Assembly: GCA_964636325.1 (NCBI GenBank) | Contig: CAZWRV010000010.1 | Coordinates: 29,072 to 93,071 of the forward strand | Direction of reading: 5' to 3' | Length of the DNA stretch: 64,000 nucleotides | From: an uncultured Victivallaceae bacterium | Lineage (GTDB): Bacteria > Verrucomicrobiota > Lentisphaeria > Victivallales > GWF2-50-93 | In this document: positions 19,503 to 41,802 of the stretch, in pieces | How the letters are laid out: each line of letters starts with the position of its first letter | Position numbering within the stretch: position 1 is the first letter of the stretch | Notes under the pieces: model-generated | Seen by the model: only the letters and a program-made list of their open reading frames with translations | Database searches by the model: none | What the model was told of the DNA's origin: nothing | Program-made: the position numbers and the translations under genes

Positions 19503-19606
19503 GATTTTATGTGTCTCCTGAATCTTATTTTCAGAACTTTGTCCTGAACTAAACTCGCAATCCTCCGTAGTTCAGGACAAAGTTCAGGATAAAGTTCCTT
19601 TGCCCC

Positions 19607-19700
19607 AAAAGTAGTTTGCGACATCCCTGGCGCAAAAAACAGATCATGGCCACCCTCGTATGCGGAGTTCCGATCTTTGCGCTCGGAGATCGCAAGCTAC
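19607..19700 (+). repeat. Rep-E element, copy 2 (core only)
   Basis: AAAAGTAGTTTGCGACATCCCTGGCGCAAAAAAC...CCTCGTATGCGGAGTTCCGATCTTTGCGC..CGCAAGCTACT aligns with 612-705. Confidence 0.75.
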
Positions 19701-26838: not shown

Positions 26839-27026
26839 GTATGAATTCAGCAAACTACGCCCTTTTGCTGAATTCATACAGGAAGGAAAATGCAAAATCG
26901 TTCGTTTTTATGCCCAAAGCCGAGATTTTTCACGGTCCTCCACCCGTATTTGGCAGAAGCCATTTGAATTTTGCATTTTTCCCAGGTAAATATCCAGTGA
27001 AAGGGCGTAGCTCACTGAATATTTAC
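26839..27026. repeat. Composite of nested hairpin repeats (Rep-B at 26839-26879, an AAAATGCAAAAT palindrome pair, Rep-C at 26986-27026)
   Basis: GTATGAATTCAGCAAACTACGCCCTTTTGCTGAATTCATAC; GGAAAATGCAAAAT (~26886) pairs with AATTTTGCATTTTTCC (~26975); GTAAATATCCAGTGAAAGGGCGTAGCTCACTGAATATTTAC. Confidence 0.8.
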
Positions 27027-27367
27027 AATTTTGCCGACACCGGCCCGACGCCGCAGCCGGCAATCCATCTGAAAAAACGCTTTGCGGACGCTCAATATAC
27101 TCCGCTTTATAGGATTGTCTAAATATATCGAGCTTATTTTGAAAAATATCGTGTCGGGGCTATTATATGGGGGGAAGTTCTGTCTTCCTCGCAGAGCGGA
27201 TTCAGCGGAAAAAATCCCGCCGCGGCGGATTTGCCGGGTTCAAGCTCTTAATTTTTCTAAGGCGGGCTTTGCCCGCAACCCAAAATTCAATGAATTCCAT
27301 AGACACATGCACGCTTTTGTGATAGAAGTTTTTAAGAAAGTATCCTAAGGAAAGCGACCGAACCGTC

Positions 27368-27895
27368 ATGGACATGGATATTATGCGCAAAATAATTTCC
27401 CTTCTGAAGCGCCTCTCCGTGGCCGTGATCCTGCTGGTGGGCATGGCCGCCGTAGTATTCGGCATATTCAACATCCGCGCGGCCTGGGTCTGCAGCCTGT
27501 GGCCCACGGTCAAAGGCAGGATCGTCGACTCAACGCCCGCGCAGACGCGCAAGCCGGACGGCAGCAGCATTTATGTGGCGAACGTCGTCTACGAATACAC
27601 GGTCAAGGACAGCACATACTACTCCTCCAACATCTCGAACTTCGGCTACGACCTCTTTTATCCGTCGCTGTCATACTTCACCGGACAGATCAGCGACATC
27701 AAGCCGGTACTGAACAAGTATCCGGTCGACAGCGAAGTCACCGTCTATTACAATCCTAAGGACAACGACGTCTCGGTCATAGACCCCAGCCTCAAGCTGC
27801 CCGTCTTCCTTCCGCTGATTTTCGGGATACTGCTCCTTCTGATCGATTTCCACCTCGTCTACATACTCGGCATATTATCCACGAGGAAGAACTGA
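27368..27895 (+). CDS. DUF3592 membrane protein
   Basis: N-terminal TM, WPTVKGRIV...YEYTV.....Y beta-rich core, and C-terminal TM. This is the typical DUF3592 layout. Confidence 0.7.
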   Translation: MDMDIMRKIISLLKRLSVAVILLVGMAAVVFGIFNIRAAWVCSLWPTVKGRIVDSTPAQTRKPDGSSIYVANVVYEYTVKDSTYYSSNISNFGYDLFYPSLSYFTGQISDIKPVLNKYPVDSEVTVYYNPKDNDVSVIDPSLKLPVFLPLIFGILLLLIDFHLVYILGILSTRKN

Positions 27896-27953
27896 CTGGA
27901 TCGCGGAAGACATACTCATTTGGCGTCAAAATGTTAATTTTTCAGCCTAAAGG

Positions 27954-27994
27954 GTAAATATTCAGTGGAAGGGCTTAGCTCGCTGAATATTTGC
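27954..27994. repeat. Rep-C hairpin, copy 2
   Basis: GTAAATATTCAGTGGAAGGGCTTAGCTCGCTGAATATTTGC. Ends 9 nt before ATG 28004. Confidence 0.8.
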
Positions 27995-28003
27995 AGGTAT
28001 GAC

Positions 28004-28399
28004 ATGCGCTGCCCGGCATGCAGAATTGAAATGGTCGTGATAGAGCACCAGGACGTCGAGATAGACGTCTGCCACAGGTGCGGGGGAGTCTGGCTCGACG
28101 AGGGCGAGCTTGAAATATTGCTTGGCGCCGGGCAAGATGCCTCACCCTTCCACGATGCGTTGGATTCAAGCTCGGCAGGTGAGCCCGGAACAAGAAGATG
28201 CCCCGTCTGCTCGAAGAAGATGGGCAGGATTGCGATCAGGCTGGATACGCCGGTCGAAATCGACAAATGCCCAAGGAAGCACGGGCTCTGGTTCGACGAG
28301 GGGGAACTGCAGCTTGTGGCCGCTGCAAGCTTTTCAGGGGGTGCCGTAGCCGAATTTCTGAACAATACGTTGGAATGCAGATTGAAGAAAAAGCAATAG
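28004..28399 (+). CDS. Tandem zf-TFIIB-type zinc-ribbon protein
   Basis: Two copies of C-P-x-C ... C-x-x-C-x-G-x-W-(L/F)-D-x-G-E-L (MRCPAC..CHRCGGVWLDEGELE and RRCPVC..CPRKHGLWFDEGELQ). Start moved from 27965, which lies inside the Rep-C hairpin. Confidence 0.75.
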   Translation: MRCPACRIEMVVIEHQDVEIDVCHRCGGVWLDEGELEILLGAGQDASPFHDALDSSSAGEPGTRRCPVCSKKMGRIAIRLDTPVEIDKCPRKHGLWFDEGELQLVAAASFSGGAVAEFLNNTLECRLKKKQ

Positions 28400-28415
28400 C
28401 TCAAGGAGGTACTTC

Positions 28416-29000
28416 ATGACGGCAGGAGCCGGAATCGCAGGGGTCGGTCTCGTCCTCATAATCATCACGGTCGTAGCAGTGCTGGTGGTCTTATGGGCCA
28501 TCCTCACATACAACACTCTGATAGGCATGAGGAACATGGTCAGGAACGCCTGGGCCCAGATAGACGTCCAGCTCAAGCGCCGCCACGACCTCATACCCAA
28601 CCTCGTCGAGACCGTCAAGGGCTACGCAAAGCACGAGAGCGGAACCTTCGAGGCAGTAGTCAAGGCCAGAACCGCCGCCATGCAGGCGAACGGCGTCAGC
28701 GCGACCGCAAAGGCGGAAGGCGAACTCTCCGGAGTCCTCAGCAGGCTGATGGCTATCGCCGAGGCATACCCCGAACTCAAGGCCAACCAGAATTTCCTCA
28801 GCCTCCAGGAGGAGCTGTCGTCCACAGAGAACAAGATCGCCTTCTCCCGCCAAGCATACAACGACCAGGTCATGATCTACAACACCAAGACACAGATGAT
28901 ACCCTCCAACATAATCGCGGGCATTGGCGGCTTCACCCCGGAGGATCTCTTCGAGCTGAAGGACGAAGCCCAGCGCGAGGCGCCCCAGGTCAAGTTTTGA
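28416..29000 (+). CDS. lemA: LemA family protein
   Basis: N-terminal TM, then YNTLIGMRN.V.NAW.QIDVQLKRRHDLIPNLVETVKGYA.HE and AYPELKAN.NF..LQ.EL..TENKIA..R..YN. Confidence 0.9.
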   Translation: MTAGAGIAGVGLVLIIITVVAVLVVLWAILTYNTLIGMRNMVRNAWAQIDVQLKRRHDLIPNLVETVKGYAKHESGTFEAVVKARTAAMQANGVSATAKAEGELSGVLSRLMAIAEAYPELKANQNFLSLQEELSSTENKIAFSRQAYNDQVMIYNTKTQMIPSNIIAGIGGFTPEDLFELKDEAQREAPQVKF

Positions 29001-29336
29001 GCTTGCAGACCTGACTGACTCAAGCGGGAATGACTGATACTGATAGGAATTTTGATTTTTACCATCCAAAGTCCGCAGTGTTTTAGTGTCTTCACTATTA
29101 TGGCGGACTGGTCTCTCTTCTCGATGAAGGATATTTCCTCATATGTATCATTGAACATCGAGCATCGATTTAAACATTGAAAACTATTCCAAATTCTTGA
29201 ACGTCGGATGTTCGACCTGTCTGTCCTCCGTCGCTTTCCTTTGGAAGACGAACGAGGGTGTTGAGTGTTCGATGCTGTTTTATATGCACTTAAGAATATA
29301 AGCCTAAGGCAAAGACAGTAAGTAAAAATCTTAACC

Positions 29337-31037
29337 ATGCCCAAGAAATGGTATTTCCTCAAGGACGGCGCCGAACTTGGCCCGTTCAACAGCCAGGAGC
29401 TCATCCAGCTGGCCGAGGAGGACAAGCTCGGCCGCGACACGCCTGTAAAGCTTGACCTCGACGGTAAATGGCACAGGGCGTCCGAGCTGGAGGGGCTCTT
29501 CCCTACGGCACCCGCCCCGGCGGCAAACTCCGGCCAATCCGGCGCAGGCACAACAGGAAAGATGGTCGTCCCTTCCACACCGATCGTCTGCCCGCACTGC
29601 TGGGAGCATTTTTCCTACGAATCAATCCTCTATGTAGCCCGCCACCAGGATCTCAGGGGCGATCCCGTCATCGGCCCGGACGCCCAGAAGCGTTTCCTGC
29701 CGACGAAGTTCAACACCAAGGGCCACGCCATAGACGCCCGAGGCATGGAGTGCGAGGACATCGCCTGTCCGCACTGCCACCTCGAAATCCCGTATTCTGT
29801 CATAACGCTCGAATCTCTATACTTTTCGATCATCGGGGCGCCTTCAAGCGGCAAGTCATTTTTCCTTACAGCATTGATCGCCAAGCTCAGGGACAAGCTG
29901 CCACGCCACTTTGATTACAGCTTCACTGACGCCGACCCGGTCTTCAACGTTGTCGTCAACGACTACGTGCAGCGCCTCTTCGACAACGAATTCCCCGACA
30001 GCTTCGTCACGCTGCCGAAGACAGACCTCCGCGGCGACCTCTTCTCCAACCAGATTACGCTCAACGGCATGATCACGGACCTGCCCAAGCCATTCGTATT
30101 CAAGATCGAACCCTCGGGCACGCACGCCCTCCACGGGAAGCAGGCCGCCGGTCTTATCAGGAACCTGGTCTTCTACGACAACGCCGGCGAGCACATCCTG
30201 CCCGGGCAGGACAGCCCCAACAATCCCGCCACCAGGCACCTGGCCGAGTCCCACGGCATCATCTTCCTCTTCGATCCCGTACTCGACGCCGGAATGAGAC
30301 GCCTCTGCAGCTCCGGAGACCCGCAGCTCAAGGACGACTCCAAGCTCGTCAACCAGGCGGTACTATTCGCAGAAATGATCGGCAGGATCAGGAAGATGAC
30401 CGGCATGAGGGCCGGAGGCGCCTACAACAGCCCACTCATCATCGCCGTGTCCAAGTTCGACATATGGGAGAACCTCCTTCCCGACGACAATATCAGGGCC
30501 CTGGACCCTTGGTGCTACAACCCGCAGACAAGACGCAATGAACTCGACTATTGCGTCGTCGCCAACGTCTCATACCACCTCAGGGAGCTAATGCTGCAGA
30601 TCAAGCCCGACATCGTCGCGGCCGCCGAGGCGTTCTCGCCCAACGTCTTCTTCATCCCAGTCAGCGCCCTCGGCAGCAACTCCATTGAGAAGCAGGATGC
30701 CGCCCCCCCGGCTCCGGTGGAGGCCCCTAGAAAGACCGTCAGGCCGGGCGACGGCTCACCCTCCCTTTCACGCGCTTTCGGAACCAAGCCCGCCAACGTC
30801 AAGCCCGTGTGGTGCGAAACACCCATGCTCCTCCTCCTCGCGCTGAAAGGCTACTTCCCCTTGAACAAGTCATCACGGCACAAGGGCGCCGATCCCGAAA
30901 GCCATGAGTTCAGAAGGCATTTCGTCACATTGCGCTTCCCAAACCTCACGGAGGAAATAAAGCTGCCTTCCACATACTTCGGAACCACCGTATACCACAG
31001 AGAACTCAAAGCTTGGATCAATATCCCGGAAAACTGA
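29337..31037 (+). CDS. GYF_2 domain / CxxC..CxxC zinc ribbon / P-loop GTPase fusion, uncharacterised family (gene A of the candidate system)
   Basis: Residues 4-55 (KWYFLKDGAELGPFNSQEL...GKWHRASELEGLF) look like GYF_2. CPHC at aa 85-88 and CPHC at aa 144-147. G1 GAPSSGKS at nt 29835-29858, G3 DNAG at 30177-30188, G4 SKFD at 30450-30461, G5-like VSALG. No signal peptide or TM. Confidence 0.85.
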   Translation: MPKKWYFLKDGAELGPFNSQELIQLAEEDKLGRDTPVKLDLDGKWHRASELEGLFPTAPAPAANSGQSGAGTTGKMVVPSTPIVCPHCWEHFSYESILYVARHQDLRGDPVIGPDAQKRFLPTKFNTKGHAIDARGMECEDIACPHCHLEIPYSVITLESLYFSIIGAPSSGKSFFLTALIAKLRDKLPRHFDYSFTDADPVFNVVVNDYVQRLFDNEFPDSFVTLPKTDLRGDLFSNQITLNGMITDLPKPFVFKIEPSGTHALHGKQAAGLIRNLVFYDNAGEHILPGQDSPNNPATRHLAESHGIIFLFDPVLDAGMRRLCSSGDPQLKDDSKLVNQAVLFAEMIGRIRKMTGMRAGGAYNSPLIIAVSKFDIWENLLPDDNIRALDPWCYNPQTRRNELDYCVVANVSYHLRELMLQIKPDIVAAAEAFSPNVFFIPVSALGSNSIEKQDAAPPAPVEAPRKTVRPGDGSPSLSRAFGTKPANVKPVWCETPMLLLLALKGYFPLNKSSRHKGADPESHEFRRHFVTLRFPNLTEEIKLPSTYFGTTVYHRELKAWINIPEN

Positions 31038-31057
31038 GAATGGAGCTCTCACGGAGC

Positions 31058-31325
31058 GCTGGTAGCTTGCGCACGCCGTGCGCAAATGGCAGACTCTGCA
31101 TATTAGGAATGCCTGCGTTTCGTCCGCCTAGGCGGGTTCTGTTTTTTGCGCGCAGCGCGCGCAAACTACTTTTTGGCAAATTCTTTTGTTATATTCCACC
31201 ATCAGGAACTAAGTTTTTCCCTGCGGGAAAAAGGCACCCTTACGGCGCGCAGGTAGTTTGCGCGCAACGCGCGCAAACTACTTTTGGTAAAAACGTTTTC
31301 CAAGTCGCACCGTAAGGGACTAATA
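31058..31325 (-). repeat. Rep-E element, copy 3 (about 1.5 units, inverted relative to copy 1), filling the gap between genes A and B
   Basis: GGTAGCTTGCGCACGCCGTGCGCAAA, GTTTTTTGCGCGCAGCGCGCGCAAACTACTTTTTGGCAAATTC, TTTTTCCCTGCGGGAAAAA, the perfect hairpin GTAGTTTGCGCGCAACGCGCGCAAACTAC (about 31252-31280), and CCGTAAGGGACTAA. Matches the reverse complement of 566-788. Confidence 0.8.
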
Positions 31326-31374
31326 AAGACTAACGACCCTATACATGAGAGCCACATATCTGGAAATCTGACGC

Positions 31375-33927
31375 ATGCCCCAGGAACTCATACACACCTC
31401 GGCCCGCAAGGGCATAAAGGCCGGAAGCTGCGGATTCTGCACCGTGGCCTACACCGAAGGCATGGCCGCGAACCTGGTGTCGATTCTGGAGGCCTACAGC
31501 GTCTATATGCCGCTTTTCGATGTCGCCGGCGACAAGGCGCTCCTCAACCCAACGTCGTTCATCCACTACAGATGCTCGGTGGGGGCCCAGAGCCTCAGCA
31601 TCATAAGCCGCATCTCCTTCGCAGGACTCGACTACACGAACAGGTCCAACCGGGTGGCCCACCATCTCGTCCTTGACCAGGAGGACCTCCCCGCGGCAGG
31701 TCCGGCCGCATTCATACGGATTTTCGACCAGAAGTCCTACTTCGAGCGGAGCTGGGACAGGGATCCCGAACTGCTTCCGCACGGCCTCCTGAACGGCAGG
31801 GTGGCGGAGGTGAAGGAGGAGGCAATTTCCCGCTCGGGCAGGGCCTCCGCCTGGGATGAGTTCGCGGGCGATGCGGGCTGGGCGGGCGCACTCGCCGAGT
31901 CCTTCCTTGCCGACCGCACCAGGCCCTCGTTCATCGTGTTCGATCCGGAGCTGCACCGGAGCTGCGACCTCCTCCTGCTCGTCGAGGAGGCCCTGTCCTT
32001 CCTGCCGCCCCAAGAGCGCTGGCAGGTCACCTTCAACACGCACTTCTCGGCGCTCCCCCAGGGAACAAGATGCGTGTGGCGCTGCTGCACAAGGAACTCC
32101 GACGCCCTCAAGGAGGCGCGCCGCACGCCTGGCGCACTCGTCGTGGACCTTTCCGACCGCACCAGGAAGGCTGACGGCGGCACCCTTGTCCAGGCCGCAA
32201 GAACAGGGGAAATGCCGCGGCAGGAAGCGGCCGCAACCCACGTCACGCACAAGGATCTCACTCAGCTCGCGAAGGAAATCCAGAAGCTTTCCGAAAAAGA
32301 ACCGAAGGCGCGTCATGATTCCATAACGCCGGATTCCAGCATCGAAATGGATTCCGGAAGCAAAGCTGGAAGTTCTGCAAAAAGCACCGTAGGCGCCCAC
32401 TCCGGCGGAAAATCCCGGCACCGGTCCGCCGGACAGCCAGCAGGCGACCAGCGCAAATCCCATGCGGCCGCAATCTCGGCATGCGTCCTGATCCTCGCGG
32501 CAATCGCATTCTGCCTCTGGATACTCAACGAGCACAGGAAGATGCAGACGGCCCTAGCCGGAACCGGAAAAGACACTCTAGGGGAAAAACACACTACCGA
32601 ATTGCGGGAAGCCATCGAAATGCCCAAGCCAAAACTTGCCGAGCCGCCCAAGGAAGCGCCATCTAATATTGTAAAGCCTCATGGGCAAGAAAAGCCCGAA
32701 CCCCCTCCGCAGCACCCCCCGAAAGAAATAATCGAACCAGTCGTCACCGCAAAGCCCGCCAAGACTGTTGAAACGCCCAGTCATCCAGCGTCGGAAAAAC
32801 CTGAAGCTGGCGAAACACCACCAACTCCTCCTTCAAAACAACCTCCCAAACCGGCCGCAAGGCCCGGTGAAGGAATCAAAGACTTCTGGTTCCGCTGGCA
32901 GGAAGGAATCCGCGACATCGGCGACAAGGCTGAAATGCAAATCCCCGGCGTCCCGGCCGACGCCAAGATCTCAATCAAGCTGAAGGACAAATGCACAAAC
33001 GGCGCGGAAATAAAAGACAACGGCAGCCCCAGGCCCGTATTGTCCAACATCCTCGGCATGGACAAGGAGACCAGGATTCCTTTCAGAAAGGACAGCGCAT
33101 CATTCAGAATATCAAGAGACGGAATACTCACAGTCGAACTGACCGACGACGCCAGGAAGTTCAACGAACCGCAGACTCTCCTGTCGGAAAACATCAAGGA
33201 AATCGTCGCCGGCAGCATAAGCTGCTGCACCGAATACAAACCTCCGCTTCCGGACGGAACCGGCACATTCGTCAACCTGGCCACTTCAGACAGGCTCTCG
33301 AAACAGCCTGAGGAAAACTTCGACGACATCGATCTGCTCAAGTTCGAATTCAAGCCCGGCAAGATCGACAAGGCGGTCCTCGACAGAACGGACGGCTTCG
33401 CCTTCAGGCTCAGACTCGGTAGCACCGTCTTCCCCAGGACAACACTGTCCCTTCAGGATATTCACGCCCTGCTGCCCCCACCGGACACAGCCCCTCCGGG
33501 AAAGGAAATCCCCGAATTCAAGGATATTTCAAGCTCCAGGAAGTCATTGATCTCGAAGGCCGCGGAAATCTACACGGAACTTAACATCCCCGAGGCCGCA
33601 CGAAAATCTTTCCTGATCCCGGAGGAGACTGTAGGGCAGCTTGTCGAAAAAAAGCTGGAGGACACCGATAAAATGCCCGATAAGACAAACGGTGAAAAGG
33701 ACATAAAGAACCAGAAGATCACGTCGCTTAACAAAATCAGAAATGAGAAATGGCCGAAATACGCCGAAGCCAGGGACGAATACCTCTCCGGCAGGGCACA
33801 TTTCCTCAAGGCTCTCCCAGACCGTGTAAAAGACTTCCTCTCGGAGAGGCTCCCCGACTTCAGGCTCGAAATCATCGAGCGGAAAGACAAGGAGGAAATA
33901 CTCCACAAGACCGTGGTGTTCGAATGA
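31375..33927 (+). CDS. Bitopic membrane protein: GAP1-N-like N-terminal domain, one TM, Pro-rich linker, C-terminal ectodomain (gene B)
   Basis: The N-terminus MPQELIHTSARKGIKAGSCGFCTVAYTEGM follows the (Q/E)L-x-(H/Y)TS...G...G..GF......T.G pattern I recall for GTPase-associated protein 1 N-domains. TM at nt ~32464-32529. Pro-rich tract at nt 32622-32868. Confidence 0.8.
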   Translation: MPQELIHTSARKGIKAGSCGFCTVAYTEGMAANLVSILEAYSVYMPLFDVAGDKALLNPTSFIHYRCSVGAQSLSIISRISFAGLDYTNRSNRVAHHLVLDQEDLPAAGPAAFIRIFDQKSYFERSWDRDPELLPHGLLNGRVAEVKEEAISRSGRASAWDEFAGDAGWAGALAESFLADRTRPSFIVFDPELHRSCDLLLLVEEALSFLPPQERWQVTFNTHFSALPQGTRCVWRCCTRNSDALKEARRTPGALVVDLSDRTRKADGGTLVQAARTGEMPRQEAAATHVTHKDLTQLAKEIQKLSEKEPKARHDSITPDSSIEMDSGSKAGSSAKSTVGAHSGGKSRHRSAGQPAGDQRKSHAAAISACVLILAAIAFCLWILNEHRKMQTALAGTGKDTLGEKHTTELREAIEMPKPKLAEPPKEAPSNIVKPHGQEKPEPPPQHPPKEIIEPVVTAKPAKTVETPSHPASEKPEAGETPPTPPSKQPPKPAARPGEGIKDFWFRWQEGIRDIGDKAEMQIPGVPADAKISIKLKDKCTNGAEIKDNGSPRPVLSNILGMDKETRIPFRKDSASFRISRDGILTVELTDDARKFNEPQTLLSENIKEIVAGSISCCTEYKPPLPDGTGTFVNLATSDRLSKQPEENFDDIDLLKFEFKPGKIDKAVLDRTDGFAFRLRLGSTVFPRTTLSLQDIHALLPPPDTAPPGKEIPEFKDISSSRKSLISKAAEIYTELNIPEAARKSFLIPEETVGQLVEKKLEDTDKMPDKTNGEKDIKNQKITSLNKIRNEKWPKYAEARDEYLSGRAHFLKALPDRVKDFLSERLPDFRLEIIERKDKEEILHKTVVFE

Positions 33928-35051
33928 GATTTATGATCAAGCAGGCTTTTTTTTGGGGAACCGCCGCCGTCCTTCTAACGGCGGCGCCGCCGGTGCGCTG
34001 CGCGGAGGACGCCCCCGCCCCTGCCGCTCCCATGGAGGCGGCCCAGGAAACACCCGCCCCGGAAGCAGCCACATCATTCTGGGTTCTCTACAGAAGCGCG
34101 ATTTCAAAGGACAAGAAGTCTTACCGGATCCCCTTGGGCAAGGCCCGGCCCGGCGCAGCGATCGACGTCGTCATGGATATCCCGGACAGCAGCAAGGGGT
34201 TGGTCGGCCGCCCCGACAAGGAGTCCGTTGTCATATACAGCCTTTCAGGATATGACGAGTTAAGGGCCCCGCAGAAAAAGCCAAGGTTCACCATCAGATG
34301 CGGCGAACGGCAGATAATTATCGAGCGCACCGGAGAGCCCAAGTCGTTGGCGCCCTCTCCCGAACTTGCGGACATCACGCATTTCATCGTCGACGGCGTC
34401 ACATACCCCGCCAGCTTCGACGGCAAGCCTTTCAGCGAGGCGGAAGCCGCATGCGCCAGTTCCTTGTCCTCGAAGAAGCTCAACCTTGTCATCCGATACG
34501 AGTTTACGCCCGCCGACAGGATCGCCGGAGTTAACAACCCCGAAAAGTTCGACTTTCATCTGACGAACAGGTTCGACAGGGTTCTCTGCAAGCAGACGCA
34601 TGCCGGGGCGGACTCCGTCTCCTTCACCTGCGATTCCAAGCAGTTCCGCTACATCGAAGAGGCAAAACCGATCATCCAGGAGCTCGACAAGGAATTGGAC
34701 GAGCTCAGGGCAAAGATCACCTATGAGGCTGGAGACTCCAAGGAGATATCCAGGCTGCTCGATTCCCCAGCCGAACTCAAGGCGTATGCGGCGAGGCTCA
34801 AGGGAAAAAAGAACCCCGACTCAAACCAGTATCTCAAAGACCTGATCGACGAATACTGCGCAAAACTCGCCGCCTCCCAGGACAAGGTTGCGGACAGGCT
34901 CGGCGAAAACAACCAGATCGGCAGTCTCGCCCAGGCTTTGAAAAAAGATGTTGAAGATATAAGATTGCAGATCATCAGGAAGTCGGACGGAAAAATCATG
35001 AAGACCGTGGGCGTCCGCGTCGACGCCGCCAATGAACGGCCAGGGAAATGA
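33924..35051 (+). CDS. Secreted protein, paralogous to the gene B ectodomain (gene C)
   Basis: ATG 33924 overlaps the gene B stop (ATGA). Signal-peptide-like MRFMIKQAFFWGTAAVLLTAAPPVRCAED. Shares KF(D/E)F...D(R/K)(V/A)L and the tail D(I/F)RL(Q/E)II..K...KTV with gene B. Confidence 0.75.
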   Translation: MRFMIKQAFFWGTAAVLLTAAPPVRCAEDAPAPAAPMEAAQETPAPEAATSFWVLYRSAISKDKKSYRIPLGKARPGAAIDVVMDIPDSSKGLVGRPDKESVVIYSLSGYDELRAPQKKPRFTIRCGERQIIIERTGEPKSLAPSPELADITHFIVDGVTYPASFDGKPFSEAEAACASSLSSKKLNLVIRYEFTPADRIAGVNNPEKFDFHLTNRFDRVLCKQTHAGADSVSFTCDSKQFRYIEEAKPIIQELDKELDELRAKITYEAGDSKEISRLLDSPAELKAYAARLKGKKNPDSNQYLKDLIDEYCAKLAASQDKVADRLGENNQIGSLAQALKKDVEDIRLQIIRKSDGKIMKTVGVRVDAANERPGK

Positions 35052-38000
35052 GCCAGATGAAAGAAATCGTCGCCGAAATCCTCAAGTTCATAGGCGCTTC
35101 CGTCCAGACGGACACCAAGGAGATGCGCTCTGCCGCAGCCGGCTTCGCGAAGGCCTGCGAGGATGTCAATTCCCGCCTGGCGAAATCCGCGGAACTTCTG
35201 CGGAAGGACGAAAGACAGGAGGCCGTGGACCTCGCCGAGGCCGATCCGCCCCTCGCCGCAACCTTCGAACTTCTGGACTCAGTCCCTAGGGCGACATGGC
35301 TCGACCTCTGCAGGCTCTACGGCTGGCCCCTGCCTCCGGAACTTCACCGTGAATTGATGGAGACCGTGAAGGCTGCGGTCGCCAGGCACAGGCTGCTCAA
35401 ACCGCTCGAGGACGAATACCGCAGGGCGATCCACACCGGAACACTGCAGGACAAGGTCGCCGTACTCAGGAAGCTGCGCAAGATCGACCCCGCCGACAAA
35501 GGCTGGGAACAGTCCCAGAAGGACTTCGAAAAACTATGGATCGCCGAGCTTGTCGCGGCCGCGAAGTCCGCTATCGCATCTAACGACGAGGACTCCCTCA
35601 AAAGGATTGATTCAATACTGTCATCCCCGGAGTGGCTGCTTAGGCCCGACCCCGGGGATTCCCAGGACATCGACTCCAAGCTGAAGGAGTTCAGGATCGG
35701 CCACCTCAAGGAAAAGGCCGGAGTAATCATCAAGGACATCGCCTCCGCATACGGCCTGTTCGACCTGGACCGCCTCAACAACGCCCTCTCCAGGTGGGAC
35801 CTCATTGCCGAAGACAGAGAATTCGCTCCCTCCGAAACAGACCTCCAGCAGGTCAGGGAGGCCAGGGAATGGGCGGCCATAAAGAACAAGGAGGAGTCAT
35901 CCAAGAGGGAATTCCAAAATCTTCTGGAATCTATCCAGCAGATGTTCGACACCGACGAACAAGAGTTCCACAGGATCGACAACGCATACAGCAAGCTGCG
36001 CCAGTTCGAACGCGAAATTCCTGACATCATCGAAACCAGATACCGCAACGCGAAGGCGGAACACGAAGTCTCCATGGCCCGCGCCTTCAAGATCAGGCTT
36101 GCGGTCTTCGCAGCCTTGACAATCGCCGCCGTAGCCGCCGCGGTGTTCCTTGTCAACCAGAGGATTCGGCACAACAGGCACGCTGAATGGTCCAGGCAGA
36201 TCGGCAGCGCGGTAGAAGCCGGAAAACTCGACGAGGCGCTCAAGCTCTTCGACTCCATGAACTCCTCTTTCCCGAACATGGCGTCCGACCCGAAATTTGT
36301 CTCCCTCAGGAAAAGCTTAGACGGTCTCCTCGTCAAGCGGGATGCCGACCGGGCCCGCCTCAAGATCCTGCGGGGCGAACTTGAAAAGGCCGCCGCGGAC
36401 GGATTCCAATCAGACATCCCCGTGGAGGAGAAGATCCGCGAGGCAGAGCCGCTCGCCGACGCACCCGATGATACGCTAGCGTTGAAGAGGATCAAGGACG
36501 CTTGGCAGGAAAACCTCGCCGCCAGGCAGAGGCAGCGCGAAACCGAATTCCTTAAAAAGGTGGAGGCGCTCGAAGCGGTCTACGAACAGGCCGCCGCCAC
36601 CGACGCCAAGGCCGACCCCGCGGCATTCTCCTCCCTCATGAAAAAATACGAGAAGGAGGCCGACGCCATGGCGGAGTATTCCACAATCGCCAAGGACGTC
36701 TACGAGCCGAAGGCGGCGATGATGAAAAAGCGGCTCCAAACCCTTGTCAAAATATTCCAGGATGCCATGAAGGAACGCAAGGACTACGAAGCCGATCTCA
36801 AGCAGATCCACTCCGACATCAGGACCATCGCCGACTTCAAGGCATCCCTCGAAAGGTTCTCCGAAAGATACCCCGAATACCCCAACAGCGCCGACATCAG
36901 CCAGGTCCTCGGCTATATGAAGCACTACCTTGCCGCGGCGGCGCTCAAGGAGTTCATGCCGGCCACCGAAATGAAGCAGGACAAGATGGGCGCATTCAGC
37001 GACCTCGCCAAAATGATCGACTCGGCGTCCCCGTGGAGCCCCGACTTCCCCGACTTCCTGAAATATTACTGCCGCCTCCAGGACAGCGCCCCAGGATTCA
37101 AGGCCGCCTTCGAGGAACTTGCAAGAGCCCCGCTCATCAACTACTATTCCATCATGGCCAGGAGCCAGGACGGCGGCGCAGTCGAGATGATTTCCGAGGA
37201 GGAGCCGAAAATCAAGCCCAGCGGCACCGCCGACGGCAAGCCCATGCGCGAAATCTCAGTCCTCAGAATCATGAGCAGTAGCGACATCTCAGGCGTCTAC
37301 TGGTATCTCCAGGAAAACCCCTCCGGCAGATGGGACGCCAGATGCGGCGGCAAGATACTTCTGAAAAACCTCGAGATCGAAGACCTGCCGCACATCACCG
37401 CGAAAATACAGTCCTACACAAAACTCTCCGCCCTCTTCAAGGAGGCCGCGGCCGCAGGCCCGCTCCGCTTCGAAACTCAGGTCCTCGACATCATCGACGA
37501 AATCAAGGTCTCCACGGGCAACCCTTACAGGAGGCTCATCCTCCTGAAACACGTCATGGGCCAGGCAGAAAAAATATCGTGGTCTCTCTCCCCGGCCTTC
37601 GGAAGGCGCCTAGCCGAAATCCAGGACTTCATGGCCTCGTTCGGCGCCGGCTACGACTATTTCAACATGCCTCAGAAGGACGTTGCAAAAGTTACGCAGT
37701 TCTTGAAGGATCTTCCGGACATGAGGCCCGAAGCGGAGGCTTCCCTTGTCGGACGCGACGCAATCCTCGCCGCCCTGGACAGGTCCGTCGACTTCATGGG
37801 GATAGTCAAGGCCGACGGCGACGAGAAAAGCGCCGCCGCCAGGAAGATGAAATTCTCCGGGGAGCTCTGGGCCCTCAGGAAGGACAGCTCCGGCAAGTTC
37901 CGCTTCCACATCGTCGGAAACGTCAAGGACGGCGCCTCCATGCTCGACCCCGCCGAAACAAAATCGCTGTCCGACTGCGAACCCCTCTTCGCCCCGACCG

Positions 38001-38122
38001 ACGGCAAAAGGACCCTCGGCCTCGCCGCCGAGCTCCAGAGGCAGGCGGCCAAGACCGGCGCCGCAATCGCATGGCCGCAATGCTGGCCGGTCAACGGCAT
38101 CCCCGCAGAACCAAAGCGTTAG
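35048..38122 (+). CDS. 1024-aa bitopic, largely alpha-helical protein (gene D), no recognisable domain
   Basis: ATG 35048 overlaps the gene C stop (ATGA). Single TM at nt ~36097-36156 (LAVFAALTIAAVAAAVFLV) separates a ~350-aa N-terminal part from a ~650-aa C-terminal part. Confidence 0.8.
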   Translation: MSQMKEIVAEILKFIGASVQTDTKEMRSAAAGFAKACEDVNSRLAKSAELLRKDERQEAVDLAEADPPLAATFELLDSVPRATWLDLCRLYGWPLPPELHRELMETVKAAVARHRLLKPLEDEYRRAIHTGTLQDKVAVLRKLRKIDPADKGWEQSQKDFEKLWIAELVAAAKSAIASNDEDSLKRIDSILSSPEWLLRPDPGDSQDIDSKLKEFRIGHLKEKAGVIIKDIASAYGLFDLDRLNNALSRWDLIAEDREFAPSETDLQQVREAREWAAIKNKEESSKREFQNLLESIQQMFDTDEQEFHRIDNAYSKLRQFEREIPDIIETRYRNAKAEHEVSMARAFKIRLAVFAALTIAAVAAAVFLVNQRIRHNRHAEWSRQIGSAVEAGKLDEALKLFDSMNSSFPNMASDPKFVSLRKSLDGLLVKRDADRARLKILRGELEKAAADGFQSDIPVEEKIREAEPLADAPDDTLALKRIKDAWQENLAARQRQRETEFLKKVEALEAVYEQAAATDAKADPAAFSSLMKKYEKEADAMAEYSTIAKDVYEPKAAMMKKRLQTLVKIFQDAMKERKDYEADLKQIHSDIRTIADFKASLERFSERYPEYPNSADISQVLGYMKHYLAAAALKEFMPATEMKQDKMGAFSDLAKMIDSASPWSPDFPDFLKYYCRLQDSAPGFKAAFEELARAPLINYYSIMARSQDGGAVEMISEEEPKIKPSGTADGKPMREISVLRIMSSSDISGVYWYLQENPSGRWDARCGGKILLKNLEIEDLPHITAKIQSYTKLSALFKEAAAAGPLRFETQVLDIIDEIKVSTGNPYRRLILLKHVMGQAEKISWSLSPAFGRRLAEIQDFMASFGAGYDYFNMPQKDVAKVTQFLKDLPDMRPEAEASLVGRDAILAALDRSVDFMGIVKADGDEKSAAARKMKFSGELWALRKDSSGKFRFHIVGNVKDGASMLDPAETKSLSDCEPLFAPTDGKRTLGLAAELQRQAAKTGAAIAWPQCWPVNGIPAEPKR

Positions 38123-38154
38123 GAGAAATCATTAGTACCGATAAACAGTCCTAA

Positions 38155-39069
38155 ATGTACTACCTCAGGGAAAACGGCAAGATACACGGGCCCTTCACCG
38201 CCGAAAGGATGAAGGAGCTGGCGGCGTCCGGAAGGATTTCGCGGCAGACAGAGGTCTCCGACGACAGGACAGTCTGGAAGCTGGCGGACTGCTACTCCGA
38301 ACTCTTTCCGGAAAAGAAGCACGCGGCCCCCCCCTCTCTTCCAAAAACTCCAAAGATTGCATCCAAGGAACCTAAGGTGGAGGAAAAAAACGCAGAACCG
38401 GAAGTCATACGCCTTGACCTGCCGGACTTCACACGCCCGGCAAGAGACGTGAAAGTCTCCCCGCCCGACCCGCCGGACATGGAACTCCCGCGAGAAAGCG
38501 CCTTCCGGAAATTGCTTTTCCTGGAAATCGCCTGGGATCCGATGGAGTCCATTCCGGAAATCTACTCCGCGCTCGGGGATAACGGCGCTTTGAAGACGGG
38601 CATTGCGTTGATTGTCCTATCGGCACTATCAGTATTCGCCGCCCTTGAACTTGCGGCCCGCAGCGGCAACCTCGGAATCAACGCAGGCCATTTCGGAATG
38701 GCCTTCTTCTCCTTCATCTCCCTCGGAGGACTTCTCGTATCCTGCTTCATCGTCCGGAAATTCCTGGGGGAAAAAGGCGAAGGCGGCTCCGGCGGGGACT
38801 GCCTAACTGCAGGCTCGGGCGCAATCCTGCTCTCGATCGCACTCCTGATCTCGGCGCTGACGGCCTGGGACGGCGCGTTCTTCCAGCGGTTCGGCGCGAT
38901 CATTTCCGCCGGCGCCGTCCTTTATGCGGCATGCTCAATGGTTTTCTGCATCTTCACCGGATGCACAAGAATCTCACGCATACCGCGCTCCGTCGGACCA
39001 GTCGCCGTCCCCCTCATAATCGCCGCCACCGCGATCACCGCAGGCCTCGCCGCAAAATTCCTCCTCTGA
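38155..39069 (+). CDS. GYF_2 domain protein with C-terminal multi-pass (about 5 TM) membrane domain (gene E)
   Basis: MYYLRENGKIHGPFTAERMKELAASGRISRQTEVSDDRTVWKLADCYSELF looks like GYF_2. It is followed by a Pro/Lys-rich linker, then hydrophobic segments from nt ~38590 to the end (Yip1-like by eye, unverified). Confidence 0.8.
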   Translation: MYYLRENGKIHGPFTAERMKELAASGRISRQTEVSDDRTVWKLADCYSELFPEKKHAAPPSLPKTPKIASKEPKVEEKNAEPEVIRLDLPDFTRPARDVKVSPPDPPDMELPRESAFRKLLFLEIAWDPMESIPEIYSALGDNGALKTGIALIVLSALSVFAALELAARSGNLGINAGHFGMAFFSFISLGGLLVSCFIVRKFLGEKGEGGSGGDCLTAGSGAILLSIALLISALTAWDGAFFQRFGAIISAGAVLYAACSMVFCIFTGCTRISRIPRSVGPVAVPLIIAATAITAGLAAKFLL

Positions 39070-39520
39070 AATTCGAACATATTAATCGCGATCTTTCTCG
39101 CTATCTTCGTCGCCTTCCGGAGGGTTGAATTCTATCCTGTGCCGCTTTCACTTTTAACTCGGCGTATTGGGCAAAACACGGCACAGGAGTGCCGTAAAAC
39201 AAAGCGCAACAGGAGTTGCGCACTCCAAGGTCAGGCGATACCTGACAAAAACTGAGGATATATTCAACAATGTCGTAACATGAATTCATATATAGATATG
39301 CGCGGATATACTTTGTCTAAACTCGAGTGCGCAAGCTTGCTTGCGTCTTATTTTCGACAAGCTTGCTTGTCAAGCATCGGAGAGAGCTCCGCTGTAAAAA
39401 GCTGAAGCACCCGCCTTCGCATGGCTACGGCACGGCACAGAGGTTCAGCACACTCCAAAGTTCATCGTCGGCAAAACTGACGTCGTCGGTGTTGTTCTCA
39501 GTGTGCAGCATCGAAAAACG

Positions 39521-39561
39521 GTATGAATCCAGCAAACTACGCCATTTTGCTGAATTCATAC
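39521..39561. repeat. Rep-B hairpin, copy 2
   Basis: GTATGAATCCAGCAAACTACGCCATTTTGCTGAATTCATAC. Confidence 0.8.
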
Positions 39562-39744
39562 TCCCGCGCGGTACGATGACCGTCATACGCGCCGGCGTCT
39601 GGCACCCATGCCCCGTTCACCCCGAACGGCAAGCCGCTCAACACCCTCGTCGTGCTGCCGGAACGCACATAGGCCAATGACTGTGTCGTCAAGGATCACG
39701 AAGTTTATCGTTCAAAAAAGCAGCCCAGCCAGATTAAGAACTTT

Positions 39745-41802
39745 CTATTTGGGCTCATGATCAATTATTGCCATTCCGAACGGAAACTGGACATCGGCAA
39801 GTTTCCTTACTTCTGCGTTGGAGGCGGAAATTCTTACAATCTCATTTTTATCGCAGTCTCCGGCCAGAATATCTCCAGTCCTTGGGTCTGCTATTAGCGC
39901 CCTCGCCGGATATGGAGCGGGCACGGGCGGCAGTACGATCTTCTTTTCCACGTCGATCGGGCACATTGTCCACTTCGCCGTGTCGACATTTGAAATCTGG
40001 CCTTTGCCGTCCTTGAAGAATGCCGAACCGTATTCGCTGGTCTTGATTTTTCCTGCGATCTCCCACTTCTGCAGGTCGATGCAGATGGTGATGTCGCGGG
40101 TCGCGGCGAGAAGAGTTTTTCCGTCCTGGGCGAGGATTACGGCCTCGCCGAGGTTTTTGATCGGAAGCGTCCGGCGGATCCTTCGGCCTGGAAGATCTAT
40201 TTCGCTCACGCTCGATCCGAAGAAGTTGGCGGTCCAGGCTGTTTCGCCGTCTCCGGACAGCGCGATTGAGCCGGGATAGACGTCGCCCAGCTCGATCGTT
40301 CCAGTCTTTTTAAATGTCGGAATGGAAATGACGTCGAGCCTTCCTGATCCTTCGCATGCCACATAAAGTTCCTTCAGCTTCGGGTTGTATGCCAGGCCCA
40401 TGGGATGGTGCCCGACTGCGGCGGAGGCGGCAAGCTTCCCGGTCTCCAGCGAGAATGCGTATACTGTGTTTTCCGTGAAAGATGATACCGCCACCCATGG
40501 CCCGGTGTCTTTTCCGTCGGCCGTAGAGGAGACGGGATTGTATTTCGGGTATGCAACCGGCGGCATTCCGGCAATGGCCTTGTAGAACTGCAGGTCGGCA
40601 GGCTCCTGGGTGCGCGCGGCGTCCTGCTCGGAGAATCCGAGCGCCCGCAGTAGAGCCAGCGCGTATAGGCGCCCGCCTTCCATATTGGGATGCCATTGGT
40701 TCGCCATCGTCGTTTTACGGTCGATGCCGGCGCGGGTGAAGGCGCCGAAGACGTCCGCGCACGGACAGTCCATCTCATTCGCAAGACCAATAATCGCGCC
40801 GGATTCCAACGCCATAGTTGCGTCGAACCCCCTAGCGCGGTCGGGGGTGTGGAAATATTTGCCGTCGGGATCCGGACCGGGCGTCATGCCGGACGGGGTA
40901 GCGCACAACACCTTGATGCCGGAGCCCTTGAGCCGAGTGATGATCTCCCGGTAGTTTTTGATGAATTCGTCGGGTGCGATGTGGACTGCGTCGTTGACGC
41001 CGAAGGCGATGACCGCCCACTGCGGCCTGAGGGCGATCACGTCCAGATCGAGGCGCTCAAGGCCTTCCATTGTCCGGTTGAGGGCGATTCCGGAATTGAC
41101 TACGGTGAACGATTCGCCGGGATATGCCTTCTGAAGAAGCCGGACGAAATGCCGCGCATAGAACCCTTCGTCCGTGATGGAGTCGCCCAGGAGGACTATC
41201 GTGTCGCCGCCTTTAAGCAGGAGTTTCCGGTCATCCTTGCGGGCTGGGGACTGCGGCCCGGAATCCGCCGGGACTTCCTCGACGCGGACGGCGTCTATCT
41301 TCACATTGTGGCCTACGAGCTTCTCGGTGACGCGGTTCATGTCGCGCATCCGCTGGTCGGGATGGAAGCGGAACTCGAGCGTGTGCTTGCCTGCGGCGAG
41401 TTTGAAAGGACCCTGCTCATGGCAGACGTGAGGATTTTCATCGGGAGCAACTACCCGCCTCGACAAGACCGGAACCGGCTCGCCGCCGTCAATCGCCATC
41501 GAATATCTCGAGTAGTTCCTGCTTCCGGATCCCGGACCTTGGATTACAACACGGTAGAGGCCGTCCTTTGCCACATTGAACTCATACGCCGCGTGGAAGA
41601 ACGGCTCCCCGGCCGGCGAAGGCTCGGCCGACTTGAACGTCAAAGCCTTTTTCGCGGCGCAGGCCGTCACGTTCGGTATATTCGACCTGGTCACATTCCC
41701 CAAATCCACTTCGACAGCTCCGCTGTCATCACATAAAATGCCTGATGAAGCGCACATGAACACTATGATCGACATATATGACGCCCTTTCAAAGATATTC
41801 AT
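39745..41802 (-). CDS. Secreted multidomain protein: N-terminal beta-sandwich (CBM-like), SGNH/GDSL hydrolase, C-terminal YVTN-type beta-propeller
   Basis: Start moved to ATG 41802 (MNIFERASYMSIIVFMCASSG signal peptide). SGNH block I LLGDSITDEG, block III FGVNDA, block V-like NQWHPN. The C-terminal repeats resemble lactonase/YVTN propeller blades. Confidence 0.75.
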   Translation of the reverse strand: MNIFERASYMSIIVFMCASSGILCDDSGAVEVDLGNVTRSNIPNVTACAAKKALTFKSAEPSPAGEPFFHAAYEFNVAKDGLYRVVIQGPGSGSRNYSRYSMAIDGGEPVPVLSRRVVAPDENPHVCHEQGPFKLAAGKHTLEFRFHPDQRMRDMNRVTEKLVGHNVKIDAVRVEEVPADSGPQSPARKDDRKLLLKGGDTIVLLGDSITDEGFYARHFVRLLQKAYPGESFTVVNSGIALNRTMEGLERLDLDVIALRPQWAVIAFGVNDAVHIAPDEFIKNYREIITRLKGSGIKVLCATPSGMTPGPDPDGKYFHTPDRARGFDATMALESGAIIGLANEMDCPCADVFGAFTRAGIDRKTTMANQWHPNMEGGRLYALALLRALGFSEQDAARTQEPADLQFYKAIAGMPPVAYPKYNPVSSTADGKDTGPWVAVSSFTENTVYAFSLETGKLAASAAVGHHPMGLAYNPKLKELYVACEGSGRLDVISIPTFKKTGTIELGDVYPGSIALSGDGETAWTANFFGSSVSEIDLPGRRIRRTLPIKNLGEAVILAQDGKTLLAATRDITICIDLQKWEIAGKIKTSEYGSAFFKDGKGQISNVDTAKWTMCPIDVEKKIVLPPVPAPYPARALIADPRTGDILAGDCDKNEIVRISASNAEVRKLADVQFPFGMAIIDHEPK

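Follow-up and report, generated by a model that had tools for sequence, protein, structure and literature searches.

A membrane-anchored GAP1-N2 protein beside its putative partner GTPase in a five-gene operon of an uncultured Victivallaceae bacterium

We analysed 64,000 nucleotides (nt) of an uncultured Victivallaceae bacterium (contig CAZWRV010000010.1, forward-strand positions 29,072 to 93,071; this whole stretch is called the window, and its first letter is position 1), and in it an operon of five genes, A to E. Gene B, an open reading frame of 850 amino acids (aa) at 31375-33927 on the plus strand that starts MPQELIHTSARKGIKAGSCGFCTVAYTEGM, is a GAP1 protein of the N2 type, and so belongs to a family that is known but experimentally untouched. 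GAP1 proteins are described as the constant partner of DO-GTPases in GTPase-centric systems (Kaur, Burroughs, Iyer and Aravind, eLife 2020, PMC7159879, a paper cited here and below from excerpts), and gene A, just upstream of gene B, encodes a GTPase of this kind. We consider it likely that the full explanation of gene B is that of a GAP1-N2 protein in a conserved five-gene module, with its GAP1 part regulating the adjacent GTPase.

The GAP1 domains and membrane anchor of gene B

The original prediction, made from the letters of the sequence, held that the first 365 or so residues of gene B resemble the GAP1-N domain of GTPase-associated conflict systems. Searching the GAP1 models of Pfam with hmmscan bore this out and gave the type: GAP1-N2 (PF20013) was matched by residues 2-133 (E 7.3e-20, 71.8 bits with a cut-off of 24) and GAP1-M (PF20014) by residues 162-260 (31858-32154; E 1.2e-10, 42 bits with a cut-off of 24), both well above threshold, and GAP1-N1 was not matched by gene B in the same scan. 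The assignment thus stood, and its extent had to be shortened, as the GAP1 domains account for about 280 residues and residues 281-363 are a disordered linker. All 20 close homologues that we scanned match GAP1-N2 and GAP1-M in Pfam as well, and a scan of NCBIfam gave no result. The parts of gene B are as follows.

31375-33927 (+): gene B, a membrane-anchored GAP1 protein of the N2 type (Pfam, homologues, hydrophobic segments)
31378-31773 (+): GAP1-N2 domain, aa 2-133 (Pfam, secondary structure of the AlphaFold2 model, conserved residues)
31762-32214 (+): GAP1-M domain, structural limits aa ~130-280 (Pfam E 1.2e-10, AlphaFold2 model with pLDDT above 95)
32215-32463 (+): disordered cytoplasmic linker, aa 281-363 (predicted local distance difference test, pLDDT, 45-63; 19% identity to the orthologue in the related locus L003)
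32464-32535 (+): transmembrane (TM) helix, aa ~364-387 (Kyte-Doolittle maximum 2.76; likewise in most homologues)
32536-32874 (+): extracytoplasmic proline-rich stalk, aa 388-500 (reading of the sequence; 23% identity to the L003 orthologue)
32875-33924 (+): fast-evolving extracytoplasmic domain, aa 501-850 (~30% identity to L003; paralogous to gene C)

The GAP1 motif spacing used in the original prediction holds across 116 aligned sequences. In this alignment 110 of the 116 share the same initial methionine, in the context M-x-x-E-L-x-Y-T-S, and therefore the start codon of gene B is correct. Positions T8, G20 and V24 of GAP1-N2 are invariant, and E4, L5, S9, G13, G17, F21, C22, T23, A25, E39, S42 and Y44 are conserved in at least 90% of the sequences. 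Conservation extends to G20-F-C-T-V, S78-R79, D86-x3-R90-x-N92 and H96-H97, with D86 and N92 present in all 116 sequences and R90 in 114 of them. For GAP1-M, the conserved residues are W160, G-D-A-G-W at 165-169, E205, R215-W216 and R236.

Gene B has a single strong hydrophobic segment. A transmembrane helix had been placed at about 32464-32529, and a hydrophobic helix was indeed found there, reaching 32535. The same prediction took the helix and the extracytoplasmic domain beyond it for a departure from the family, a view that the homologues overturned. A search with gene B returned 117 of them, nearly all with PF20013 and PF20014 and mostly 750-900 aa long, and in 114 of the 117 one or more hydrophobic segments are predicted, with a start that mostly falls at aa ~305-380 and nearly always just past GAP1-M. 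Since Kaur et al., in the excerpts of their paper, also describe GAP1 fused to a C-terminal transmembrane helix and outside domain, together with a partner that fuses GYF to a TM-rich region (here gene E), the membrane-anchored layout is the norm for this branch of GAP1 proteins. The outside domain itself matched nothing in Pfam, either in the window protein or in the 20 homologues scanned.

With one genome taken per species, the nearest relatives of gene B come from metagenome-assembled genomes (MAGs) that bear the labels Victivallis, Victivallaceae and Lentisphaeria, and after these come many from Planctomycetota; the window is therefore probably Lentisphaerota DNA. When residues 1-285 served as a phmmer query, 3188 proteins out of 1.84 billion cluster representatives (clustered at 50% identity) matched at E <= 1e-3. 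Gene B adds one unannotated member to a large family that was defined computationally in 2020.

The partner GTPase and the conservation of the locus

Partnership with the upstream GTPase, which the original prediction had expected, is upheld by gene A, which carries all the G motifs, and by synteny. Among the 83 loci used for the synteny counts, a GTPase gene lies upstream of the GAP1 gene in 68, a homologue of gene D lies downstream in 63, and a GYF protein like that of gene E is encoded in 26.

29337-31037 (+): gene A, a 566-aa GTPase of the DO-GTPase2 type with GYF_2, zinc ribbons, G domain and a C-terminal beta-rich region (Pfam, AlphaFold2, Foldseek)
29349-29498 (+): GYF_2 domain of gene A, aa 5-54 (Pfam PF14237, E 3.8e-8, 33.4 bits with a cut-off of 25.8)
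29583-29786 (+): zinc-ribbon region of gene A, aa ~83-150 (invariant cysteines)
29814-30686 (+): G domain of gene A, aa ~160-450 (conserved G motifs)

The zinc ribbons of gene A hold the CxxC pairs 85-88 and 144-147, and C85, C88, C144 and C147, like H103 and H148, are invariant in 94 sequences. In the G domain we found conserved the P-loop G167-x4-G172-K173-S174 (GxPxSGKS, 167-174), T229, D281-N-A-G-E285 (a Walker B motif with glutamate), K373-x-D375 and S443-A-L445. DO-GTPases are defined by a glutamate after the Walker-B glycine, and N-terminal zinc ribbons are typical of them, according to the excerpts of Kaur et al. (PMC7159879). The DO-GTPase2 model PF19993 is recorded for many homologues of gene A. 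An AlphaFold2 model of gene A (pLDDT 92) matched the TRAFAC GTPases EF-Tu, Rheb, Rac, Era, atlastin and G-alpha in Foldseek, with no specially close family, and a sequence comparison of gene A with the PDB gave no match.

The N-terminal module of the GTPase is exchanged among homologues: in P0126, P0151, P0152, P0206 and P0227 it is drawn from GYF_2, FHA with Yop-YscD_cpl, and a Ser/Thr kinase, which suggests differing peptide or phosphopeptide inputs to one switch.

Downstream of gene B the operon continues with three genes, the B/C and C/D junctions being stop/start overlaps of the form ATGA.

33924-35051 (+): gene C, 375 aa, with an N-terminal signal-like segment (hhalign to the outside domain of gene B)
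35048-38122 (+): gene D, a 1024-aa protein with a single TM segment at aa 346-373 (36083-36166) (synteny, TM prediction)
38155-39069 (+): gene E, 304 aa, with GYF_2, a proline-rich linker and five TM segments (Pfam GYF_2 E 3.8e-8, hydrophobic segments)

TM segments are thus predicted in B, D and E. Judged by profile comparison, gene C is a paralogue of the outside domain of gene B (hhalign probability 94.8%, E 5.3e-8, 200 columns); plain BLASTP of the two was not significant (E 0.23), and in a control profile comparison the D family was unrelated to either. Other loci show this relationship too: one or more genes lie there between GAP1 and D, and they encode copies of the local GAP1 protein's outside domain that are secreted or anchored at the N terminus, as in the following four.

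L005, 6810-8420: one outside-domain copy (66% identity, E 2e-100)
L030, 4812-6137: one outside-domain copy (37% identity, E 2e-69)
L023, 12656-18468: three tandem outside-domain copies (61%, 28% and 33% identity; E 1e-178, 7e-48 and 2e-50)
L003: one outside-domain copy (26% identity, E 7e-6)

Such copies could be partners of the receptor domain or a stock of variants. Gene D appears to be a conserved core partner in this branch, from an unnamed family, because it follows GAP1 in 63 of the 83 loci. Pfam gave no meaningful match in 44 members of the D family, only scattered chance matches, and a word-indexed homologue search with gene D returned gene D itself alone.

The five-gene module is conserved in Lentisphaerota and Planctomycetota, with single matches labelled Verrucomicrobiota, and the two closest loci (L002 and L003) have five genes identical in kind to those of the window. 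Comparison with L003 shows that the outside parts diverge faster than the cytoplasmic ones. Identity is 70% for the zinc-ribbon region and 61% for the G domain of the GTPase, 59% for GAP1-N2, 52% for GAP1-M and 45% for the cytoplasmic part of gene D, and it is 30% for the outside domain of gene B, 34% for the periplasmic part of gene D and 32% for gene C. Taken overall, identity to the L003 orthologues is 45-70% for cytoplasmic modules and 29-34% for outside ones.

Two GAP1-N2 loci are present in some genomes or MAGs (L028 and L041, which lie on one contig, CAVZRC010000003.1; L013 and L033; L026 and L073), so that these systems can be paralogous within one organism. A further locus, L076 (DYLD01000046.1), is found in a MAG labelled Syntrophus aciditrophicus and has the GTPase, GAP1, a gene in the position of C, D and E; its GTPase is 41% identical to that of the window and its D protein 29% over the full length. 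Its presence under that label could reflect horizontal transfer or a binning error.

The claim that gene B directly adjoins the GTPase needs a qualification: the upstream GTPase is confirmed, and between the two genes lies a structured spacer of 337 nt, compared with 23-76 nt in close relatives.

31038-31374 (no strand assigned): spacer between genes A and B with palindromic repeats and terminator-like hairpins (RNA fold z-score -5.7)

In this strongly structured spacer, GTAGTTTGCGCGC/GCGCGCAAACTAC make up a perfect hairpin of 13 bp, and T runs follow two terminator-like hairpins. Because related copies occur elsewhere in the window (~574-764 and ~19605-19643), the spacer resembles a palindromic repeat element of the dispersed kind. 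It is probably an insertion that lies outside the system proper, and it may split the operon or attenuate its transcription. Rfam reported no family in 27000-40000. Three small genes on the same strand lie just upstream of gene A (27368-29000); one encodes a DUF3592 membrane protein, another a protein that has two TFIIB-type zinc ribbons, and the third LemA. They are probably unrelated to the system, since in L002 and L003 the gene immediately upstream of the GTPase is a different one.

Predicted fold and candidate role of the GAP1 module

The AlphaFold2 model of gene B, which was built with the 116-sequence alignment, has a pLDDT of 91-98 for residues 1-280. Within GAP1-N2 the modelled elements (pLDDT 97-98) run beta 3-10, beta 20-27, alpha 32-40, beta 61-69, beta 72-85, beta 91-100 and alpha 110-119, and as modelled this is the longin order beta-beta-alpha-beta-beta-beta-alpha. 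GAP1-M (132-277) is modelled as alternating strands and helices of an alpha/beta domain. In the DENN module, a longin domain is combined with a five-stranded alpha/beta sandwich, according to PMC3521125.

The best match of the model among PDB structures in Foldseek was TagF of Acinetobacter baylyi (9t0n; E 6.9e-4, probability 0.98, 253 columns). FLCN (6nzd_H) followed, then DENND10 (8p0v_M) with probability 0.97 and DENND1A bound to Rab35 (6ekk_B) with probability 0.96 and a TM-score of 0.34, and further matches included FNIP2, ~365-residue chains of GATOR1 complexes, sedlin and TagF of P. aeruginosa (6iz8). The matches to DENND1A, DENND10 and FLCN span both GAP1 domains, with probabilities of 0.85-0.97 and TM-scores of only 0.22-0.34. 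Leaving aside PAS and LOV domains, the matches are regulators or platforms of GTPases, or TagF. The model supports a structural resemblance of GAP1 to TagF and to longin-DENN proteins; we claim resemblance and not membership because the TM-scores are 0.2-0.34 and the root-mean-square deviations (rmsd) large.

PAS and LOV domains bring in another possibility, that GAP1-N2 is a PAS-like sensor of small molecules and that the likeness to longin comes from a common fold alone. Longin and PAS do have a common fold (PMC3521125), and several LOV/PAS domains were among the matches, at probabilities of 0.1-0.5. However, the matches of higher probability that cover both domains (250-390 columns) are TagF and longin-DENN proteins, and the conserved residues sit in strands and hairpin loops. 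We regard a PAS-like sensor as very improbable.

TagF consists of an N-terminal alpha+beta domain and a C-terminal alpha/beta domain "with no homology to ... other characterized proteins". TagF works with Fha, PpkA and PppA (PMC5995506 among the sources). Mutagenesis of TagF has found the G-K, D-F and S79-x-D81-x3-R85 loops to be needed for Fha binding and for T6SS (type VI secretion system) repression (PMC5995506). Conserved residues of GAP1-N2 follow in the same order and at near positions, T8-S9, then G20-F21, then D86-x3-R90-x-N92, and the counterpart of the S-x-D-x3-R loop, D86-x3-R90, is alike in spacing and position. For a comparison of profiles, 20 sequences of TagF were available in the supplement to bioRxiv 10.64898/2025.12.08.692957; annotated TagF genes beside plasmid hcp genes were absent from the four regions examined. 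A permissive run of hhalign paired P-G-S-x-G-F with P-S-R-G-D-F and D-Y-T-x-R with D-x-S-G-R. The window gave no match in a search with a TagF hidden Markov model (HMM), and neither the window nor the neighbourhood of the operon holds T6SS genes. The profile comparisons, made with shallow profiles and no secondary-structure term, were not significant; for this reason we do not claim that GAP1 belongs to TagF, and homology between the two is unproven.

The same loops raise the possibility that GAP1-N2/M is a TagF-like checkpoint, which would hold a GYF- or FHA-bearing partner through its D-x3-R loop and would not directly alter the nucleotide cycle of the GTPase. TagF is after all the best structural match, its loop at the shared D-x3-R position binds Fha, and FHA and kinase modules are fused to GTPases homologous to gene A. 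Set against this are the non-significant profile comparison and the strict coupling of GAP1 to a GTPase gene, to which it is sometimes even fused (Kaur et al. 2020, PMC7159879, in excerpts), whereas TagF has no dedicated GTPase. A checkpoint of this type is in our view improbable.

We return to the preferred reading, regulation of the adjacent GTPase by GAP1. The predicted topology puts GAP1-N2/M, the GTPase, the first 345 residues of gene D and both GYF_2 domains in the cytoplasm, and the C-terminal half of gene B, gene C and the last 650 residues of gene D outside. GAP1-N2/M would bind the adjacent GTPase and set or read its nucleotide state, as a GTPase-activating protein (GAP), as a guanine nucleotide exchange factor (GEF) or as a platform. 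Binding of ligands by the variable outside domains, with B, C and D sensing the outside, would alter this control, such that an outside event could be turned into a GTP switch inside through a GAP1 tethered across the membrane to a variable domain. Targets of the switch would in turn be the membrane partners, namely D and/or protein E with its five TM segments, and the GYF_2 domains of A and E might hold or recruit parts through proline-rich segments such as the linker of E.

A broader reading, which we put forward tentatively as possible but less likely than not, is that GAP1-N2/M, TagF and the eukaryotic longin-DENN regulators are versions of one two-domain regulator module for GTPases or assemblies. 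On this view the bacterial version, GAP1, would still have its own GTPase as a neighbour and would be wired through the membrane to a fast-evolving outside receptor, of which spare copies are encoded alongside.

A number of results weigh against these interpretations of gene B and its operon. On the structural side, the Foldseek scores are weak (E about 1e-3, TM-scores of 0.2-0.34, high rmsd), PAS/LOV domains occur among the matches at lower probability, and hhalign of 41 GAP1 N-terminal regions against the 20 TagF sequences was not significant (probability 1.4%), nor was that of the N domains alone (probability 0.2%, E 0.26). The GAP1 profile found no relative among PDB sequences, the sole match running through the low-complexity linker. 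Gene A scores 24.4 bits on DO-GTPase2 (PF19993), under the cut-off of 27. No further GAP1 model was matched in gene B or the 20 homologues by Pfam, with the presence of a GAP1-C model in the Pfam copy unconfirmed, and Pfam found no fn3 or other beta-sandwich in the outside domain of gene B, gene C, gene D or the 44 D homologues, where HMMs could miss very divergent repeats. The window thus differs from the GAP1-N2 DO-GTPase systems, as the excerpts of Kaur et al. present them, by having no Pfam-detectable GAP1-C domain or FNIII-repeat protein. The operon is flanked by housekeeping genes (SecA, a phosphoribosyltransferase, RlmN) and not by a defence island, PADLOC gave no credible match to a defence system, and our literature searches found no experimental work on any GAP1 system. 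Papers after 2020 on GAP1 or DO-GTPases were likewise absent from the literature searched.

The last of these points bear on the role of the system. A role in biological conflict, that is, in defence, is the published hypothesis for the family (Kaur et al. 2020, PMC7159879, in excerpts). The operon might instead be a resident machine for envelope or membrane organisation or for signalling, in which the GTPase and its longin-like partner organise membrane proteins. The flanking genes and the PADLOC result would fit such a machine, as would the five genes themselves, in which Pfam recognised no toxin or enzymatic effector domain; furthermore, the four-gene core A-B-D-E is kept across Lentisphaerota and Planctomycetota, and the nearest structural analogues are regulators of trafficking or assembly and not toxins. 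At the same time, divergence is much faster in the outside parts than in the cytoplasmic ones, single loci contain duplicated copies of the outside domain, and some genomes hold two systems (L028 and L041 even on one contig), all traits of an arms race according to the excerpts of Kaur et al. (PMC7159879). We find a resident machine rather unlikely.

What goes beyond the literature searched, in which no published link of GAP1 to longin, DENN or TagF was found, is the predicted TagF- and longin-like fold, the outside-domain copies and the conserved partner D. GAP1 may be a regulator of the adjacent GTPase that resembles longin domains and TagF and is tethered to an outside domain of variable sequence, and the conserved residues R79, D86, R90, N92, H96 and H97 offer targets for mutation. 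If the one-module reading were true, the DO-GTPase/GAP1 systems would gain a receptor-coupled GAP or GEF mechanism, with R79, D86 and R90 as candidate catalytic or contact residues, and TagF and the DENN-type proteins would gain a bacterial relative. The structural link, if true, would join three literatures that do not cite one another, on conflict systems, on T6SS regulation and on the eukaryotic DENN/FLCN regulators.

Comparison with known systems

In MglA-MglB, a bacterial GTPase is encoded beside a GAP whose Roadblock fold is related to longin. This GAP, MglB, forms a Roadblock dimer that is small and soluble and lacks a second domain, a membrane anchor and a variable outside domain. The top 50 Foldseek matches of the GAP1 model held no MglB; the longin-related fold of MglB-type regulators is treated in PMC3521125.

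TagF (9t0n, 6iz8/2qnu), the top Foldseek match, resembles GAP1 in the predicted two-domain layout, alpha+beta and then alpha/beta, and in the conserved D-x3-R loop at about the same position. Moreover, signalling modules of the FHA, kinase and PP2C types are associated with both, in the case of GAP1 through the FHA and kinase modules on GTPase homologues and through the kinase and PP2C partners reported for GAP1/DO-GTPase systems (Kaur et al. 2020, PMC7159879, in excerpts). Unlike GAP1, TagF is soluble, is encoded in T6SS clusters and is not known to regulate a GTPase.

The longin-DENN regulators (FLCN-FNIP, DENND1A/10, GATOR1 subunits and the TRAPP subunit sedlin) are alike in having a longin-like N domain and then an alpha/beta domain, in being paired with a dedicated GTPase, and in recurring among the best structural matches. 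They differ in that gene B has no d-DENN domain, its residues 281-360 being predicted as disordered and followed by the TM helix, and in that they have no sequence similarity to GAP1 and reach TM-scores of only 0.2-0.34. Gene A, for its part, is a large zinc-ribbon TRAFAC GTPase with no particular closeness to Rab, Rag or Arf.

The GAP1-N2 DO-GTPase systems, as far as the excerpts of Kaur et al. (PMC7159879) describe them, differ from the window in a few respects. The window has one GTPase and not two, the GTPase itself bears a fused GYF_2, and in gene E a single GYF_2 takes the place of a pair. Those excerpts mention neither the conserved protein D of ~1000 aa nor gene C as a paralogue of the outside domain, and Lentisphaerota is not named there as a host. 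The shared features include GAP1-N2 and GAP1-M encoded just downstream of a zinc-ribbon GTPase with the Walker-B glutamate, a C-terminal TM helix with an outside domain, an operon protein rich in TM segments with GYF (gene E), and a phyletic range that includes planctomycetes and verrucomicrobia.

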